Assembly (NCBI GenBank): GCA_045110695.1
Contig: JBGCGH010000034.1
Coordinates: 6,233-70,232, forward strand
Reading direction: 5' to 3'
DNA: 64,000 nt
Source of the DNA: Bdellovibrionales bacterium
GTDB lineage: Bacteria; Bdellovibrionota; Bdellovibrionia; Bdellovibrionales; UBA840
Both the position numbers and the translations under genes were made by a program. Under the pieces are notes generated by a model. The model did not search any database. It was not told where the DNA came from and saw only the letters and a list, made by a program, of their open reading frames with translations. Shown here piece after piece: positions 5,655-63,097 of this stretch. The stretch's first letter is position 1. Every line of letters starts with the position of its first letter.

Positions 5655-6515
5655 TTATTTCCCTCTGTATTGGTGATTAGATAGATTTTTATTTCTTTGT
5701 ACGGACTTCTCAAAGCTCATCGCTAAAGTTCCCTCTAGCTCGAGTTCTCTCATTTTTTCCAATCCAGCCTCAGTAACACCCTTTTTAGAAGTTACCTGAT
5801 TTCTAAGCTCATCCAAACTAATGTTTTCTTGTAATTCTGCCAAAAGAGCAGCCCCTCTGAAGGTCTTAATAGTCATTGCCCTGGCAGAGGCTGCATCAAA
5901 GCCCCTCTCCACTAACCACTCTTCCCAGTATGTCATGAGCTCAAAAACAAAGCCCGTTCCACTGGCGCAAGCCACCATTAATGCATCGAACTCGTCCCCC
6001 TCTTCAACTTTGACAACAAGTCCAAGAGGAGAAAGTAATTCTACAATGATATCTTCAATAAGCGAGTCAGATTCTAAACTACTAATACCTATAACGCCCT
6101 CACCTACTCGGGATGCGGTGTTTGGCATGACCCTAATAATACTTTTTGTAGTTGGAATTAGACTCTTTAGTTCGTCTAAAGAAATACCAGCAGCTAGGCT
6201 GATAACGATTTTATCTTCGTTAAATGCATGAACTATACTCTCTATTGCACTTGGTAGATCCTGAGGCTTCATCGCTAAAAATATGATGTCGCTCTCATCT
6301 ATAAGCTCTTCGTTGGTTGGATAAACTTGAAGACCTTCATAACTCGTTTTTAGTTTTGCCATTTTCCCTGGCGTGCGATTTGATAATCCAATTTGGTCAG
6401 GAGTTACCGTACCGTCTTCCATCAGGGCTTCAATAATAGCCTGAGCCAAGTTTCCAGCTCCAATGAAGCCTACTTTTTTTCTTTTCACTAGTCCACGTGC
6501 TATTGGGTTGGCCAT
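5655..6515 (-). CDS. proC: pyrroline-5-carboxylate reductase
   Basis: VGFIGAGNLAQAIIEAL Rossmann motif and ProC-like C-terminus (VTSKKGVTEAGL). Start set to ATG 6515 (MANPIARG). Confidence 0.9.
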   Translation of the reverse strand: MANPIARGLVKRKKVGFIGAGNLAQAIIEALMEDGTVTPDQIGLSNRTPGKMAKLKTSYEGLQVYPTNEELIDESDIIFLAMKPQDLPSAIESIVHAFNEDKIVISLAAGISLDELKSLIPTTKSIIRVMPNTASRVGEGVIGISSLESDSLIEDIIVELLSPLGLVVKVEEGDEFDALMVACASGTGFVFELMTYWEEWLVERGFDAASARAMTIKTFRGAALLAELQENISLDELRNQVTSKKGVTEAGLEKMRELELEGTLAMSFEKSVQRNKNLSNHQYRGK

Positions 6516-54880: not shown

Positions 54881-55714
54881 TTATCCTAATAATCTTAATG
54901 CACCTTGAGGAGCAGCGTTTGCCTGAGCCAATACGGACTGAGAAGCTGCTAACAAGATGTTATTTGAGGTCAATTGAGCCGTAGCTGCCGCAATATCTGT
55001 ATCTCTAATTCGAGAGTTTGCCGCTGAAACGTTTTCCATTGCAGTACCTAAGTTACTTTGAGTAGATATAAGTCGGTTTTGAATCGCACCTAATGTTGCT
55101 CTATGTCCGTTTACGGTATACTGAGCATCATCAATGATTTCTAGCGCTTCTCTAGCTCCATCTTTTGATGAATAATCTAATCCATCCATACTCAAGTCAG
55201 CTAGTCTCACGGATTGAGCGCCTGCATCGAAACTAATTCTATCCTGAAACTCATCATTGTTAATATCAATTTGGAAACTAAACTCACCAGCCTCGCCATC
55301 GAGAAGATTAGTTGTTCCAAATTTAGTTGTTTGTGAAATACGATCAACCTCTAATTTTAACTGTTGAACCTCTTTGTCTAGGAAGGTTCTTTCTCTATCA
55401 CCTACTGTGTCAGATGCCGCTTGAACACCTAGCTCTCTTAATCGTACTAATATATTTGATACTTCGTTTAAGCCACCCTCAGCAACCTGAACCATACTTT
55501 GTCCATCCATTGCGTTACGTTGTGCAACTCCATATCCTTTTACCTGAGCTTTTAAACTTTCACTCAATGCTAAACCGGCTGCATCATCAGCGGCTTTTGT
55601 GATTCTGTCACCTGAAGATAACTGAGCAAAACTCTTGTCGATCTTTCTTTGTGATTTACCTAGTGCATTCTGAGCGTTAATACTTGCTACATTTGTTGAA
55701 ATTCTCATTCCCAT
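54881..55714 (-). CDS. fliC: flagellin (277 aa)
   Basis: MGMRISTNVASINAQNAL...AADDAAGLALSE...C-terminal TAQLTSNNILLAASQSVLAQANAAPQGALRLLG. Confidence 0.95.
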   Translation of the reverse strand: MGMRISTNVASINAQNALGKSQRKIDKSFAQLSSGDRITKAADDAAGLALSESLKAQVKGYGVAQRNAMDGQSMVQVAEGGLNEVSNILVRLRELGVQAASDTVGDRERTFLDKEVQQLKLEVDRISQTTKFGTTNLLDGEAGEFSFQIDINNDEFQDRISFDAGAQSVRLADLSMDGLDYSSKDGAREALEIIDDAQYTVNGHRATLGAIQNRLISTQSNLGTAMENVSAANSRIRDTDIAAATAQLTSNNILLAASQSVLAQANAAPQGALRLLG

Positions 55715-56261
55715 TTTTAGTCCCCTTTTTCTTTGTTACCTGCTAGCAATCCTTAGCTTTCTAAGCCCGACGGTCCCACTCGACGCAACCTAGATAACCA
55801 GCGATGGTAATCAGTTGTTAAACTTTTTTCTAAACACGTTGGCGCTCTCAATTACATGCATCTCTTTTTTTAAAATCCCGGCAGTCACACCAGATTTTTT
55901 AATTTGCATTTCATTTTAAACACAACAAACCTTTCGGCTAGGGCTGGGGATACCTAAGTCGAGTCGAGCGTTTCTAGACCAAAGCCCCGCTCTTGCTAGA
56001 CTATGATCTAGCTTAAACTACTAAAGTCCTGAACAATTCAAGGCCAAGGTCTAGCTAGTATAAAAGTCCTGCCCGACCTTATTCTGGCGACCTTGATCTG
56101 TATTAATAGTAAGTCCAAGTGATTGTTTCTTTTTAACGAGCTTTTCCCAGTCACTCACCCATTAATTCTTTGGCTTAGTACTAAAGGGTATTATTTTAGT
56201 TGAATAATAAAATCCATTTCAAAGATTCTTGTTTTTAATTACTATATATATAGAGGTACTT

Positions 56262-56960
56262 TTGAAAAATAATCGCGGCGAAAATATATTTACCAGAATC
56301 AATACCAAAAAGCTGCGAACCCGAGCCTTTAATCTAGCCGTAGAAAGTAAAGTTTGGGCCATGCTAAAAATTGGTGGTGAGCTCAGAAAGTGCAAGTGCC
56401 TAGACCGCACTGGAGCTGAGATCTATGTCAGACCCACCCAAAATCTTACTGTGAAAAATGGAACCAAATGCGTTCTAATGTTTAATGTGGGCGTTGAGAA
56501 GTACTTTTTAAACTCAGAGATAAGATCCTGTGCGGATGGCGACTTTGCCCTATCCTTGGATGTTCCCCTTTTTAAACTACAAAGACGTTCTAATTTTAGA
56601 GTAGAGCCACCTGATAGCTGGAATTGTTCGGTCACTCTATTAAAGCGCAACAATGAGAGCCTAGATGAGACCTTCAGAGTAAATGACATAAGCGCTGGTG
56701 GATTAAGTTTTATGACAGATATGAATCATCCCCTTAAAGCGATTCAAAACGACCAAGTGGAAGGCTTCTTTAATTTTGAAGGCAAGCTAAAGGCACATTT
56801 TGAAGGAAAAATTAAGAACAGTCTAAGTATGGGCTCCAGGGGAAGTGGAGTATTTAGAATTGGTATTGAATTTGATAGTCTAGACGATAAAATAATTATC
56901 CAGCTCACAGAAATCCTAATGGAGATTCAAAGAATTCTCCTCGCTGAGTCCAGCAGCTAA
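56262..56960 (+). CDS. PilZ-domain (c-di-GMP-binding) protein, YcgR-like architecture
   Basis: PilZ motifs QRRSNFRVE (RxxxR) and NDISAGGLSF (D/NxSxxG), with about 100 aa N-terminal to them. Start uncertain (TTG 56262 after AGAGG; ATG 56361; track start 56229). Confidence 0.75.
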   Translation: MKNNRGENIFTRINTKKLRTRAFNLAVESKVWAMLKIGGELRKCKCLDRTGAEIYVRPTQNLTVKNGTKCVLMFNVGVEKYFLNSEIRSCADGDFALSLDVPLFKLQRRSNFRVEPPDSWNCSVTLLKRNNESLDETFRVNDISAGGLSFMTDMNHPLKAIQNDQVEGFFNFEGKLKAHFEGKIKNSLSMGSRGSGVFRIGIEFDSLDDKIIIQLTEILMEIQRILLAESSS

Positions 56961-57816: not shown

Positions 57817-57843
57817 TAAAGTTTTAACGCATACCGTCGATAA
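57817..57843 (+). promoter_or_regulatory. sigma-28 (FliA) promoter of flagellin gene 2
   Basis: TAAAGTTT-TAACGCATACC-GTCGATAA: 8/8 at -35, exact 11-nt spacer, 7/8 at -10. Confidence 0.8.
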
Positions 57844-57987
57844 GATGGAAGACTGTGAGAGACTTAGCCCGGCTGACTACCGGGCTTAGCATCGAGGGTA
57901 CTATTTATTTAGTCCCTCAAGCATGAGCGGGACAACCTCCCTAATTTCTATCTGGTGGGACAGATGGAAGATTTTGGGGGGACCATT

Positions 57988-59671: not shown

Positions 59672-59973
59672 GCTTAGTATATTCAAATTAGAGCAATCCT
59701 TCGATTCTGAAGTTTTTAACCCCTTTCTAAAAAAAAAGGTAAAATTGATCAGCTCCCATCTTAAACCAATTTATTTTTGTGAAAATCGCTTAAAACTTTG
59801 TAGTTAACCTACTCTCTTACTAAGAGTTATTTCGAGTTTTAAAACTCAACAAAGCCAAATGACTCGTCGCGCACACGCCTGAGCCAGACTAAAGTCGAAA
59901 AAAAATTTTTTAAAATTCCTTCATGATTTCACATACAAGATGCAGCGCGCAAAATAAACCTAGACGAAGGGCC

Positions 59974-60000
59974 TAAAGTTTCCTAGACCAATGTCGATGA
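59974..60000 (+). promoter_or_regulatory. sigma-28 (FliA) promoter of flagellin gene 3
   Basis: TAAAGTTT-CCTAGACCAAT-GTCGATGA: 8/8 at -35, 11-nt spacer, 6/8 at -10. Implies a leader of about 300 nt. Confidence 0.8.
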
Positions 60001-60311
60001 GCCTCTTGAACACGTTGGAGCTATCGATGCAAGTCTCTCACAGTCACAGGACTTCCATTGAGTTAACCAAGTTAGAAAGTGTCAGTCACCATTTTCTAGT
60101 GAGGAAAAGTTCCAAACTTTTTATTAACGGCGAATGCCGGTTCTAGTGGGAAACCACAAAGGGCAAAAAGAGTTCAGAGCATTGGAGAACGAGTCCCCGC
60201 TCTGCCAAAAATGTTTAGATAGAGTTTTCCCAAACTCTATCTTTACTGAACTCTTTTCATTTCCTTTGTTGTTTTAGAGAACCAAGCACTCGTAAACAAT
60301 GGAGGCTTTTA

Positions 60312-61139
60312 ATGGGCTTAAGAATTAACACGAACGTTGCATCAATCAGTGCGCAAAACAAACTAGCAAAGCAACAAAAACGAATGGAACATTCCCTAGC
60401 GGCTTTATCCAGTGGTAGTAGAATAGTTACTGCCTCTGACGATGCAGCTGGTTTGGCAATTTCTGAAAACCTACGTGGACAGATTGCTGGTGTGAATGTA
60501 GCAAAACGAAATGCGTCTAACGCCATTTCACTTATTCAAGTATCTGAAGGTGGTCTCAATGAGATCAACAATGTACTCATCCGATTAAGGGAGTTAGGAG
60601 TACAGGCAGCTTCAGATAACGTTTCCGAAGTAGAAAGACAGTTTCTAGATCAAGAAGCTCAACAGCTTATCTCGGAAGCCGATCGTATTGCCAAGACGAC
60701 AAAATTTGGTAACCAGGATTTATTAAATGGTGCCGGTGATGAACTTGAGTTTCATGTTGGTCCATTTTCTGGAGAAGAGAATATTATATCCTACAATGTA
60801 TCTGCTGATGCAACTGGTGATAATATTGGTTACGCAGGAATATCAGTCGGAGATAAAGGTTCTGCTAGGGACGCTCTAGAGCAAGTCGATGATTCTTTAA
60901 TTAAAATCGGTGAACTAAGAGCAGATTTTGGTGCGGTTCAATCAAGAATGAATATGACAGTTTCAAACTTGAACAACCAGTACGAAAACCTAAGTGCAGC
61001 CAACTCTAGATTAAGAGATACGGATGTAGCACATGAGACAGCTGAACTAGCCTCTGCGCAGATTTTGCAACAGGCAGCAGTTGGAGTTCTCGCACAAGCA
61101 AATGGTGTGAATAACTCAGCTCTAAGATTATTAGGTTAA
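60312..61139 (+). CDS. fliC: flagellin (275 aa)
   Basis: MGLRINTNVASISAQNKL...SDDAAGLAISE...C-terminal ELASAQILQQAAVGVLAQANGVNNSALRLLG. GGAGG 6 nt upstream. Confidence 0.95.
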   Translation: MGLRINTNVASISAQNKLAKQQKRMEHSLAALSSGSRIVTASDDAAGLAISENLRGQIAGVNVAKRNASNAISLIQVSEGGLNEINNVLIRLRELGVQAASDNVSEVERQFLDQEAQQLISEADRIAKTTKFGNQDLLNGAGDELEFHVGPFSGEENIISYNVSADATGDNIGYAGISVGDKGSARDALEQVDDSLIKIGELRADFGAVQSRMNMTVSNLNNQYENLSAANSRLRDTDVAHETAELASAQILQQAAVGVLAQANGVNNSALRLLG

Positions 61140-61271
61140 TAATTAGAAATTAATGGAGTGGTTTCGTAGCAACTAGCGGAACTCGGGCGAGCCCCTCATC
61201 TTTGAGAAGCCACTCTAAAAAATTGTGAAGGAGGTTGTCCCGCATATGACATCTCTCTTAAACTTAAGCCC

Positions 61272-61309
61272 CCCCTGAGGTTCCCACAGCTTCAGGGGTT
61301 TTTCTTTTT
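61272..61309 (+). terminator. rho-independent terminator of flagellin gene 3 (after a ~130-nt 3' UTR)
   Basis: CCCCTGAGG / CTTCAGGGG 9-bp stem (one G-U), 9-nt loop, then T5CT5. Confidence 0.75.
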
Positions 61310-61345: not shown

Positions 61346-61657
61346 CTAGGCTGTTCGGTAGAAGCGTCCTTTAAAAATAAAATCATCCTCAAACTTTTTT
61401 ATGGAAGAATAGGCACGTAGTACCCTTGCCCTTGATAGGCCTTTATTTTTTGCCTGAGTGAGCCTGTTTCTTCCCACCAGATCTATAATCTTACCCAATC
61501 TCTCATCCCGATCAGCGGATCGATTGTGATCTTCCGCCGCATCTGATTTGTCTAAAGTTTCCAAATGAAACCATGGCTTAAGAGGCTCGCTCTTTAGCTC
61601 GGGGGCATCATCTGCAACTTCGGCAATCGTTTGATTACCTATGGATTGAATCTTCAT
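61346..61657 (-). CDS. hypothetical protein (103 aa)
   Basis: ORF only. Charged, no TM. No family recognised. Confidence 0.4.
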   Translation of the reverse strand: MKIQSIGNQTIAEVADDAPELKSEPLKPWFHLETLDKSDAAEDHNRSADRDERLGKIIDLVGRNRLTQAKNKGLSRARVLRAYSSIKKFEDDFIFKGRFYRTA

Positions 61658-62008: not shown

Positions 62009-63097
62009 ATGAAAAAAATGGCCATTCTAACTATTTCAGCGATTTTAGGTATATTTTTACTGGTTGGAAATAATGAGGGAAACAGCCCGGGATTAAATAA
62101 AGGCAACAAATCAAAAGTCTCAGCCTTTGACCCGAGCTACAAAGCCTATCCTACCGGTGGGATTTTTTCAGCGTCCGACCTTTACGTCCCAAGAGACAAA
62201 AGCCAAGACCCTCGTTCCAACAAAGTTTCGGAAGTAGCTTCCGAAACTTCTACAGTTTCTAAAAAGAAAAAAACAAAACTTAAGAAAAATAAAGCACTAG
62301 CCAAAAAGAAAAAGAACCCTAAAAAGAAGAAGAAAAAGAAAAAAGTAGAAGACGATAAAACAGAAGACGAAGAAACTACAGCAGTGGCCGATAAAAAGGA
62401 AAAATCTGAGCAAAAAGACAATTTTACTTCAGCCCCTCCTGTTCTCTCTAAAGTAGCCAATCAAAATGATATTACCAACAGCAAAAGAGATTGGTATAGC
62501 TACCTTTCACAAAACTTAAGCGAAGACTCCATCAATGAGTTTTTAGCCGCTTTATCAAGTGGAGAAATAGAAGAGTCCGAATTCTATTTAGTGATTGATA
62601 AACTAATTGCGACAAATGAAGATCGAAAAATATTTACAGCTATCTTCTTATTGGAGAAACGCCCTGGAGCCTCCAGTATTTCACGTTTGCTAAATATTAC
62701 TAACGATACAGAGTTAAACTCCGAGCTACAAGTAGAAGCCCGATTCGCAATGGAAGACTACAAATCTTTTAGTCTACTTAAGTTTTTGGTAAGCGCTCTA
62801 GGACAAGGATCATCTGAAACACAAACCTATGCATCTGAGCTTATTAAAGATTTCACGATCAGCAATTTAAATATTCAGAGATCTAGAGGTGGCAATAGCA
62901 GTTCTAATTTAAATGAAAGTCAGCAGCAGTTTTTTAGTGATATTGGAATTAGCTTAGCAAAATACAGCTATAGAGGTAGAGGTGGAAATGGTGCAACTGA
63001 ATTACAATCCAATGTGATGGCAACGATCGGCGCAATCAATTCAGTAATCCCTGCATTAATTGATTCTAGAAACAATATCGCTAGAAATGGAAACTAA
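62009..63097 (+). CDS. hypothetical exported protein with poly-Lys low-complexity region
   Basis: N-terminal hydrophobic segment. SKKKKTKLKKNKALAKKKKNPKKKKKKKKVEDDK. Helical C-terminal domain. No family recognised. Confidence 0.55.
   Translation: MKKMAILTISAILGIFLLVGNNEGNSPGLNKGNKSKVSAFDPSYKAYPTGGIFSASDLYVPRDKSQDPRSNKVSEVASETSTVSKKKKTKLKKNKALAKKKKNPKKKKKKKKVEDDKTEDEETTAVADKKEKSEQKDNFTSAPPVLSKVANQNDITNSKRDWYSYLSQNLSEDSINEFLAALSSGEIEESEFYLVIDKLIATNEDRKIFTAIFLLEKRPGASSISRLLNITNDTELNSELQVEARFAMEDYKSFSLLKFLVSALGQGSSETQTYASELIKDFTISNLNIQRSRGGNSSSNLNESQQQFFSDIGISLAKYSYRGRGGNGATELQSNVMATIGAINSVIPALIDSRNNIARNGN

Follow-up and report, generated by a model that had tools for sequence, protein, structure and literature searches.

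The window analysed here, a 64,000-nt stretch of DNA from a Bdellovibrionales bacterium (GenBank assembly GCA_045110695.1, contig JBGCGH010000034.1), carries three flagellin genes within 4.6 kb. An initial annotation, made from the letters alone, had singled out the approximately 300-nt leader of flagellin gene 3, located downstream of a sigma-28-type promoter, as a probable site of post-transcriptional control. As described in the following, this leader is very probably a long, structure-conserved post-transcriptional control region, and the exposed elements of its 5′ domain have complements in the leaders of both other flagellin genes of the same genome. This complementarity covaries between genomes and may reflect a relay of leader-to-leader pairing among flagellin messages.

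The flagellin 3 leader and its conserved 5′ junction

The genes, leaders and promoters in question are the following; the letters A, B and C denote three classes of leader, defined by listing the regions upstream of every flagellin gene in the window and its related loci.

54881-55714, minus strand: flagellin gene 1 (class C), with its leader at 55715-55928
55937-55929, minus strand: GCCGAAAGG box on the promoter side of flagellin gene 1
57817-57843, plus strand: sigma-28-type promoter of flagellin gene 2, an exact pattern match
57844-57987, plus strand: leader of flagellin gene 2 (class A)
59974-60000, plus strand: sigma-28-type promoter of flagellin gene 3 (TAAAGTTTCCTAGACCAATGTCGATGA), an exact pattern match kept in relatives
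60312-61139, plus strand: flagellin gene 3 (class B; 275 amino acids), with the Pfam domains Flagellin_N and Flagellin_C

The protein encoded by flagellin gene 3 is 100% identical to NCBI MFK8138296.1 from a Bdellovibrionales metagenome-assembled genome. Its promoter, already recognized in the initial annotation, is one of only two exact matches to the sigma-28 pattern TAAAGTTT-N11-GNCGATRA in the 64 kb (0.36 expected), both of which precede flagellin genes. Classes A and B match the sigma-28 consensus, while class C has a weaker promoter-like element with a GCCGAA −10 box. From the geometry of the promoter, we infer that transcription of flagellin gene 3 starts at about 60007-60009. Promoter and leader, the latter 220-330 nt long, are kept in all seven distinct orthologous loci that were retrieved by protein similarity alone. 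When folded, the leader (60008-60330) has a minimum free energy (MFE) of -96.8 kcal/mol, compared with -73.7 ± 5.2 kcal/mol for dinucleotide shuffles (z = -4.46; none of 100 shuffles reached a value as low). Together with the independent recurrence of a nested, Y-shaped arm in six lineages (see below), this argues that the structure is real and beyond chance.

Comparison with related genomes, which the initial annotation had put forward as a check, bears this out: about 35 Bdellovibrionota genomes and metagenome contigs carry the leader ahead of the orthologous flagellin gene, and its stems covary. The related loci were collected in three ways, namely by protein search of genomes, by exact look-ups of homologues and by scanning metagenomes for a pattern consisting of the promoter plus TGAA..GG. 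The last of these gave 28 matches, 24 of which have a flagellin start (MGLRIxTN) 194-439 nt downstream according to an automatic test; inspection revealed such a start, MGLRITTN, in L027 and L038 as well, the contig of L040 ends before any start, and L033 is a false match. The resulting sample comprises 32 non-identical class B leaders and, for word counts, 351 kb of total sequence, with all genomes stemming from uncultured Bdellovibrionota. At the gathering score, no Rfam 15 family matched the window or 12 related loci; relaxing the E-value up to 10 for the window returned chance-level matches only, none of them on the 5′ core and none to a riboswitch, leader or thermometer family.

The most conserved part of the leader is not the set of nested repeats but a three-way junction at its 5′ end (60007-60115), which is composed of the following elements:

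60007-60021, plus strand: leader 5′ end UGAACACGUUGGAGC, i.e. the single-stranded tail and the 5′ strand of helix P1; near-invariant in the 32 leaders
60015-60022, plus strand: 5′ strand of P1 (UUGGAGCU), paired with 60108-60115 in the MFE structure
60024-60061, plus strand: hairpin SL1 of the MFE structure, with a loop at 60037-60048 that contains CAGUCAC
60071-60100, plus strand: hairpin SL2, 11 bp, with the loop UCAGUCAC at 60082-60089
60108-60115, plus strand: 3′ strand of P1 (AGUUCCAA), CUCCAA in most relatives and reminiscent of an anti-Shine-Dalgarno sequence
60116-60128, plus strand: A/U-rich linker (ACUUUUUAUUAAC; family consensus AAACAnnUUUUAUUAACC), detected by k-mer enrichment

When the 32 leaders were folded individually, most adopted a common 5′ domain. 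Read 5′ to 3′, it consists of a free tail of 7-8 nt (UGAACACG), P1 (GUUGGAG/CUCCAAC), SL1, SL2 and the A/U-rich linker, and its stability amounts to -29 kcal/mol. P1 is 90% paired across 30 distinct leaders and yet near-invariant; its 5′ strand includes the GGAG that the initial annotation had placed ahead of an upstream open reading frame (uORF). Across the family, the SL1 loop contains CAGUCA(C) and the SL2 loop reads (A/U)(C)CAGUCAC, while the word ATTAACC of the linker occurs in 7 of 28 leaders (0.2 expected).

Loop and stem lengths vary among the leaders, and RNAalifold predicted no structure from a plain MAFFT alignment of the 5′ domains. Covariation was therefore scored on an anchored, N-padded alignment in which each hairpin is aligned outward from its loop and the register is taken from each sequence's own fold. 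In this alignment, 81.6% of the cells are paired, as opposed to 56.7% in shuffles, and both sides have changed in 232 cells as opposed to 85. The covariation score of 0.486 compares with 0.147 in shuffles, none of 500 of which reached it, and with 0.09-0.15 in controls with slid partners. Compensatory changes affect all 10 stem pairs of SL1 and all 12 pairs of SL2. With shuffled flanks, an apical hairpin forms around the motif in about 8 of 27-29 cases (observed: 27/27 for SL2 and 25/29 for SL1), and pairing of SL2 drops from 83.6% to 56 ± 4.6%.

A covariance model built from the MAFFT alignment (R1), whose own alignment was badly registered with 72% of positions paired, detected the leader once in each locus and only once in the window. 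The sole new match of the model, at 6207-6326 on the minus strand of L025, proved to lie antisense to a class C flagellin leader, which led to the finding of leader-leader complementarity.

Complementarity among the three flagellin leaders

The conserved words of the three leader classes are complements of one another. In the window, the elements outside the flagellin 3 leader that take part are these:

57851-57865, plus strand: first bases of the flagellin 2 mRNA (GACUGUGAGAGACUU), complementary to SL1 of the flagellin 3 leader
57866-57886, plus strand: hairpin AGCCCGG-CUGACUA-CCGGGCU of the flagellin 2 leader, with a UGACU loop complementary to AGUCA
55877-55894, minus strand: hairpin UCUGGU-GUGACU-GCCGGG of the flagellin 1 leader, in which GUGACUG (55888-55882) is complementary to the CAGUCAC loops
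55830-55842, minus strand: CCAACGUGUUUAG in the flagellin 1 leader, complementary to the 5′ end of the flagellin 3 leader

Class A leaders start with UGACUG, 6-7 nt after the −10 box. In the window, 57851-57865 is 100% complementary over 15 nt to SL1 bases 60031-60045 (AAGUCUCUCACAGUC), and no perfect inverted repeat in the 4.6 kb with the three flagellin genes is longer than the one made by these two arms. The same relationship exists in all 12 genomes with both classes: the longest A-B complement measures 11-19 nt (shuffles: mean 7.5, maximum 10-13). On the A side it invariably comprises the first bases downstream of the sigma-28 −10 box, and on the B side the 5′ arm and loop of SL1. Its sequence differs from genome to genome, as exemplified by AAGTCTCTCACAGTC/GACTGTGAGAGACTT in the window, GATCTCGTCTAACAGTCAA/TTGACTGTTAGACGAGATC in L032, GGTCGTTTATAGTCA/TGACTATAAACGACC in L007 and AAAAATTGCAGTCA/TGACTGCAATTTTT in L006. 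Treated as an intermolecular helix of 16 pairs across the 12 genomes, the A-B complement has 96.4% of its cells paired, compared with 72.5% when the A arms are swapped between genomes (0/500 swaps reached the observed value) and 28-42% when the partners are slid; 11 of the 16 pairs have changed on both sides. Cofolding the first 40 nt of A with the B core of the window gives -57.0 kcal/mol, as opposed to -43.4 kcal/mol for the two apart—a gain of about 13.6 kcal/mol—and P1 is lost in the predicted dimer. In L002 and L028, the loop of the internal class A hairpin additionally matches the SL2 loop over 8-9 nt.

The second partner is the class C leader, which contains CUCCAACGUGUUCAA and an apical hairpin loop (A)GUGACUG. 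Among the 48 occurrences of the 10-mer AACACGTT[GA]G in the 351 kb, 36 lie at the 5′ ends of class B leaders and the other 12 are all antisense. Nine of these 12 precede another flagellin start by 59-128 nt, the distance in the window being 128 nt, whereas the one in L028 sits at a contig end and those in L038 and L040 have no flagellin start within 500 nt, the contig of L040 ending there. In 9/9 genomes, the longest B-C complement begins at position 0-3 of B and is 9-16 nt long. Its versions, three in number, covary between the two leaders: most genomes have GAACACGUUGG/CCAACGUGUUC, the held-out locus L049, which was found after the pattern had been defined, has GAACACAUUGG/CCAAUGUGUUC (leader words GAACACATTGG with CCAATGTGTTC), and L021, from the genome of L007, has GAACAAAACG/CGUUUUGUUC (GAACAAAACG with CGTTTTGTTC). 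The predicted interaction of the B 5′ end with the class C leader amounts to -32.2 kcal/mol, compared with -19.7 ± 2.8 kcal/mol for shuffles.

The loops provide a further set of matches. Class C GUGACUG matches the CAGUCAC loops in six of nine genomes, and L025 has a compensating loop pair, SL2 CAAUCAC with class C GUGAUUG. The GUGACUG-type loop of class C is apical in 9/9 genomes, with a different stem in each; its unpaired probability is 0.76-0.96 in four of the seven genomes with a value and 0.3-0.4 in two others. The pairing elements can thus be regarded as accessible, in that the class B and class C loops are apical in the folds of the individual sequences and the complements begin at transcript position 0-3.

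An all-against-all comparison within each genome, setting the first 28 nt of each flagellin leader against all its other flagellin leaders (exact complements of at least 9 nt), gave this complementarity a direction. The 5′ end of A matches B in all six genomes where both were called and the 5′ end of B matches C in 9/9, while no C 5′ end matched A or B and no A 5′ end matched C. One further 5′ end, in L013, matches C. Conserved complementarity with compensatory change, as expected of RNAs that pair in trans, was found for both A-B and B-C.

The additional match in L013 belongs to a fourth kind of flagellin leader, present on the plus strand at L013:6542 and L025:7741 and beginning with UUGGGUGUCAGCCACGUUGGACCCAGACGGUCC. 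Its CACGUUGGA in L013 is a 9-nt complement of the very site in class C to which the class B 5′ end is complementary, suggesting that the network possibly has more than three members.

The downstream leader and its surroundings

Between the 5′ core and the start codon, the flagellin 3 leader of the window contains the following elements, among them those that had attracted attention at the outset:

60146-60157, plus strand: GUGG-GAAA-CCAC hairpin, which carries the family-wide UGUGGG box
60151-60162, plus strand: AAACCACAAAGG, alternative partner of 60263-60274 (92% complementary; paired in this way in the full-length MFE structure)
60166-60257, plus strand: clade-specific Y-shaped 3′ arm, in which an outer helix (60166-60177/60246-60257) encloses hairpins A and B
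60178-60215, plus strand: hairpin A, loop AGUCCC at 60192-60197
60217-60242, plus strand: hairpin B, loop UCCC
60263-60274, plus strand: candidate anti-Shine-Dalgarno sequence CCUUUGUUGUUU, forming a 12-bp helix with 60294-60305 in the MFE structure of the 3′ part
60294-60314, plus strand: Shine-Dalgarno (SD) region AAACAAUGGAGG and start codon (GGAGG at 60301-60305, start at 60312-60314)

Hairpin B is the perfect 11-bp hairpin of the initial annotation (AGATAGAGTTT-TCCC-AAACTCTATCT), which is present as described, as is the GTGG-GAAA-CCAC sequence; the long-range inverted repeat around hairpin B is likewise there, measuring 12 rather than 11 nt (AAAAGAGTTCAG at 60166-60177, CTGAACTCTTTT at 60246-60257). 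The first and the last of these are conserved structure with covarying stems, limited to the clade of the window. An outer helix around two hairpins emerges from the independent MFE structures of six lineages whose stem sequences differ, with GUCCC(C) in the loop of hairpin A and (U)CCCA in that of hairpin B. Versions of the outer helix include AAAAGAGTTCAG/CTGAACTCTTTT in the window as well as GTTTAGC/GCTAAAC, CGCAGAC/GTCTGCG, CTTAGA/TCTAAG, GGCGA/TCGCC and TTATAATTATC/GATAATTATGA, and those of hairpin B include, besides the window's own, GAAGTGT/ACACTTC, AAGTAT/ATACTT and GAAC/GTTT. Members of this clade (the window, L041, L043/44, L045, L001/L003/L046/L047 and L005) have about 130-150 extra nt between the UGUGGG box and the ribosome site; in most other leaders the two are 10-60 nt apart and the Y arm is absent. 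An origin of the arm from a mobile element, such as a miniature inverted-repeat transposable element (MITE) or a repetitive extragenic palindrome (REP), was rejected, as neither the rest of the window nor 50 loci contain another copy of 60158-60292.

Pairing of 60263-60274 with either the SD segment or 60151-60162 is a possible on/off pair of conformations, as predicted by the folding models; the anti-SD pair occurs in the window's clade only and varies in form. TGTGGG is found in 18 of 28 class B leaders, compared with 0.9 in shuffles. A UGUGGG or GUGGGA box is in fact seen in all three leaders of the window (60146-60150, 57955-57960 and, on the minus strand, approximately 55793-55788) and is shared by most relatives; it is frequently unpaired or placed in a hairpin loop, and may be the site of a shared protein. 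Neither this box nor the AUUAACC linker has a consistent complement within the leader or in the other flagellin leaders.

Length, conservation and structure also characterize the class A and class C leaders, neither of which has an Rfam match. The former (57844-57987, plus strand) comprises the 5′ UGACUG, GUGGG (CUACGUCUC), a hairpin with a UGACU loop and, near the SD, one with a GUGGGA loop, whereas the latter (55715-55928, minus strand) has the GUGACUG-loop hairpin and CUCCAACGUGUUCAACCC, followed by hairpins with CAAGGAUG and GUAGGU loops. Upstream of and inside flagellin sigma-28 promoters, the DNA word GGTC(C/T)AG(T/A)T or CTAGACC occurs in two to three copies and in both orientations: in the window at 59958-59990 (plus strand) and, upstream of the flagellin 1 promoter, at approximately 55975-56010 (minus strand), with AACCTAGACGAAGGGCCTAAAGTTTCCTAGACC as an example, and upstream of class C promoters in L015, L025, L028 and L039. 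Judged by its sequence and placement, it looks like a transcription factor binding site.

Several neighbouring features deserve mention. Just downstream of flagellin gene 3 lies orf103 (61346-61657, minus strand), encoding 103 amino acids with a basic C-terminal part and no Pfam match, which was considered among the small neighbouring proteins as a candidate RNA binder; it is kept near the orthologous flagellin in L003/L035 (41% identity) and L006 (34%), and genes of 103 amino acids are also found in L046 and L047. A PilZ-domain protein, i.e. a member of a family that binds cyclic diguanylate (c-di-GMP), is encoded between the flagellin genes (56229-56960, plus strand), and its homologues adjoin flagellin genes in L003, L005, L007, L035 and L037. 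The 3′ untranslated region (UTR) of flagellin gene 3 extends over about 150 nt (61140-61300 region, plus strand) up to a strong terminator at 61272-61298 and contains complementary stretches of the GGAGTGG...CCACTC type. Finally, a long lysine run (KKKKTKLKKNKALAKKKKNPKKKKKKKKVEDDK) marks the open reading frame at 62009-63097 (plus strand, 362 amino acids), which lacks a Pfam match.

A putative relay among flagellin messages

Our favoured explanation, which we hold to be somewhat better than evenly probable, is a relay of leader-to-leader pairing that runs from flagellin 2 via flagellin 3 to flagellin 1 and is built on the conserved, folded docking domain of the leader. In this scheme, the two other flagellin leaders present in the cell would dock onto the exposed elements of the flagellin 3 junction. 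The flagellin 2 mRNA would use its outermost 5′ nucleotides to pair with SL1, covering the 5′ arm and the loop over 15 nt in the window; the flagellin 3 leader would use its own 5′ terminus, i.e. the tail and the 5′ strand of P1, to pair with the internal site of the flagellin 1 leader, whose GUGACUG loop could also be kissed by the CAGUCAC loops. Contacts that begin at a free 5′ end or in a loop and continue into a longer helix have, by analogy, the geometry of antisense RNAs that act through seeds or kissing loops. Once SL1 is invaded or the 5′ end captured, P1 would open and the leader be remodelled; flagellin messages could then be altered in translation or stability, which would couple or order the production of the paralogous proteins. 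The opened P1 might, for instance, free CUCCAA to close the ribosome site. In the window's clade, the Y arm and the putative pair of anti-SD and anti-anti-SD lie between the core and the ribosome binding site, and the GGA motifs would probably add control of the CsrA type. The three partners are presumably co-expressed, and encounters between their RNAs in the cell, like the sign of any effect and its mechanism, are inferred.

Taken further, flagellin mRNAs would regulate each other directly, with the first 10-19 nt of one message acting as a seed on the leader of the next (2 to 3 to 1) and kissing loops helping, in a circuit made of mRNAs only and devoid of a dedicated sRNA. We put this stronger version at slightly below an even chance. 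The relay would then set the order or ratio in which flagellins are made and laid along the filament.

Several points weigh against this interpretation. The B-C match of the window is perfect over only 10 nt (13 with wobbles), and the loop matches span 5-7 nt. As the covariation alignments were registered on the best match or on the fold predicted for the individual sequence, pairing is inflated, even though the slid and swapped controls argue that the choice of register is not the source of the signal. Since the transcript starts derive from promoter geometry, the assignment of the complements to the very 5′ end could be off by a few bases. A role of the P1 3′ strand as an anti-SD has no covariation behind it, given that P1 covaries in L028 while the SD does not, and the UGUGGG box is left unexplained by the relay. 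All of the sequences, moreover, come from uncultured Bdellovibrionota, and complementary motifs on two sense strands amount to one DNA word in two orientations, which a reading at the DNA level could accommodate as well.

Such a reading would treat the shared words (TGAACACGTTGG, CAGTCAC) as sites for a transcription factor, for recombination or for another DNA-level signal that works in either orientation. The motifs do occur in both orientations near sigma-28 promoters, and so does the other word, GGTC(C/T)AG/CTAGACC, upstream of promoters. However, the words sit in the loops of covarying hairpins, which is a signature of RNA, and the A-B complement spans sequence that is wholly different between genomes, unlike a fixed protein site; both observations place the signal at the RNA level and argue for selection on the pairing of sense transcripts. 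In addition, the class C word is located about 140 nt downstream of its promoter, the mismatches in the duplexes are mostly G-U rather than A-C on the sense strands (albeit in small numbers), and an invertase gene is not nearby, with inversion between the repeats expected to silence both genes. We therefore consider a DNA site very improbable. Quite unlikely, too, is a leader that acts purely in cis, be it that the 5′ junction protects an abundant mRNA from 5′-end-dependent decay or that the CAGUCAC loops bind a protein. The stable 5′ domain would suit the first of these and the two identical loops a dimeric protein, and the UGUGGG boxes shared by all three leader classes suggest a common factor. 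Yet a protein reading CAGUCAC would not read the complementary GUGACUG or UGACUG of the other leaders, and the covarying intermolecular complements would go unexplained. The remaining mechanisms raised in the initial annotation, i.e. a transcription attenuator, an RNA thermometer or uORF-dependent control, are hardly credible. An open reading frame of 39 codons from ATG 60027 to TAG 60146 indeed exists, in frame with an earlier ATG at 59991, but it is conserved neither in position nor in coding capacity: an ATG at this position is found only in the window and, with 10 codons, in L001/L003, and 18 of the 32 leaders have no ATG in their first 60 nt. It is thus probably not a gene. As for attenuation, no terminator-like site was found on the plus strand of 60000-60311; the perfect hairpin has three G-C pairs and is followed by TTT only, scoring as a terminator solely on the minus strand, and no plus-strand hairpin precedes a U tract of the terminator type. 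Nothing favours a thermosensor beyond the predicted conformation in which 60263-60274 sequesters the SD, and this pair has the restricted distribution described above. What holds of the original proposal, rather than these particular mechanisms, is that the leader is long, sigma-28-driven, structurally conserved and very probably a post-transcriptional control region.

The remaining alternative, also named at the outset, is a leader of the CsrA/FliW type and nothing else, in which the structure presents GGA motifs (5′ UUGGAG, GGAUG, GUGGGA and the SD) to a CsrA dimer that blocks the ribosome until flagellin export frees FliW, as for Bacillus subtilis hag, and complementarity is a by-product. 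Several features fit. The SD, AUGGAGG, contains GGA and GGGAAA tops the 60146-60157 hairpin; GGATG is enriched (12 of 28 leaders, 3.4 expected), with many (C)A(N)GGAUG(Y) sites resembling the consensus from systematic evolution of ligands by exponential enrichment (SELEX). The CAAGGAUG and GUAGGU loops of class C leaders are clear GGA-type hairpins, and the GUGGGA-loop hairpin immediately upstream of the class A SD, whose stems covary, is a plausible one. For Bdellovibrio bacteriovorus, the model species of the phylum, a CsrA that represses B. subtilis hag has been reported (PMC13443453), and Bd0543 is listed as its FliW (PMC12546842). On the other hand, the CAGUCAC loops, the invariant 5′ tail and the genome-specific complementarity of 11-19 nt are left without explanation, and the base after GUGGG is an A in only about one-third of class B leaders. 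Neither csrA nor fliW was found in the window or the related loci, where tblastn with the E. coli and B. subtilis CsrA proteins gave no match. Although CsrA binding is a candidate by virtue of these motifs, we regard it as unlikely to be the whole story; CsrA control can coexist with the relay between leaders.

Our literature search on Bdellovibrio flagellin leaders, sRNAs and mRNA-mRNA interactions with flagellin found no description of leader pairing. The closest mechanistic precedents, by analogy, are the hly-prsA2 pair of Listeria monocytogenes (PMC8722363) and the classical kissing-loop antisense systems. In the former, a leader likewise pairs in trans with another mRNA and couples linked proteins without a dedicated sRNA gene; here, by contrast, there would be three paralogous partners in a directional chain that uses extreme 5′ ends and hairpin loops, and the case is known by covariation alone. 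ColE1 RNA I/RNA II and R1 CopA/CopT share complementary loops of 7-8 nt, whose contact is extended from a free end into a longer duplex, but these RNAs originate from opposite strands of one locus and are fully complementary, whereas the flagellin leaders belong to separate genes and their short complements would be kept by selection. Trans-acting sRNAs with 5′-terminal seeds and 5′ UTR-derived sRNAs resemble the leaders in that a pairing module occupies the first 10-19 nt and an A/U-rich stretch follows a structured 5′ domain, the difference being that a full-length flagellin mRNA would itself be the regulator here. Campylobacter flaA and Borrelia flaB are further flagellin leaders under CsrA-FliW control. 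With the B. subtilis hag leader, that of flagellin 3 has in common that it is structured, driven by sigma-28/sigma-D and equipped with GGA motifs including one at the SD; the hag leader, however, is short and has two GGA sites, as opposed to about 300 nt here, where the best-conserved elements (the CAGUCAC loops and the UGAACACG tail) are not GGA sites.

In many bacteria, one filament is assembled from several flagellins. Those of B. bacteriovorus are laid down in ordered blocks, and knockout of fliC5 raises the mRNA of other fliC genes, for which no mechanism was given (Iida et al., PMC2791853). Co-evolving complementary leaders offer a testable mechanism for both the order and the compensation, namely that the messages sense one another by base pairing, and the exact complementary stretches being known, compensatory mutations can be designed directly. 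The three-way junction of class B leaders constitutes at least one new structured RNA motif absent from Rfam, and the class A and class C leaders probably add two more. If true, the relay would join the few natural examples of regulation between mRNAs and stand out by the unusual clarity of its covariation.

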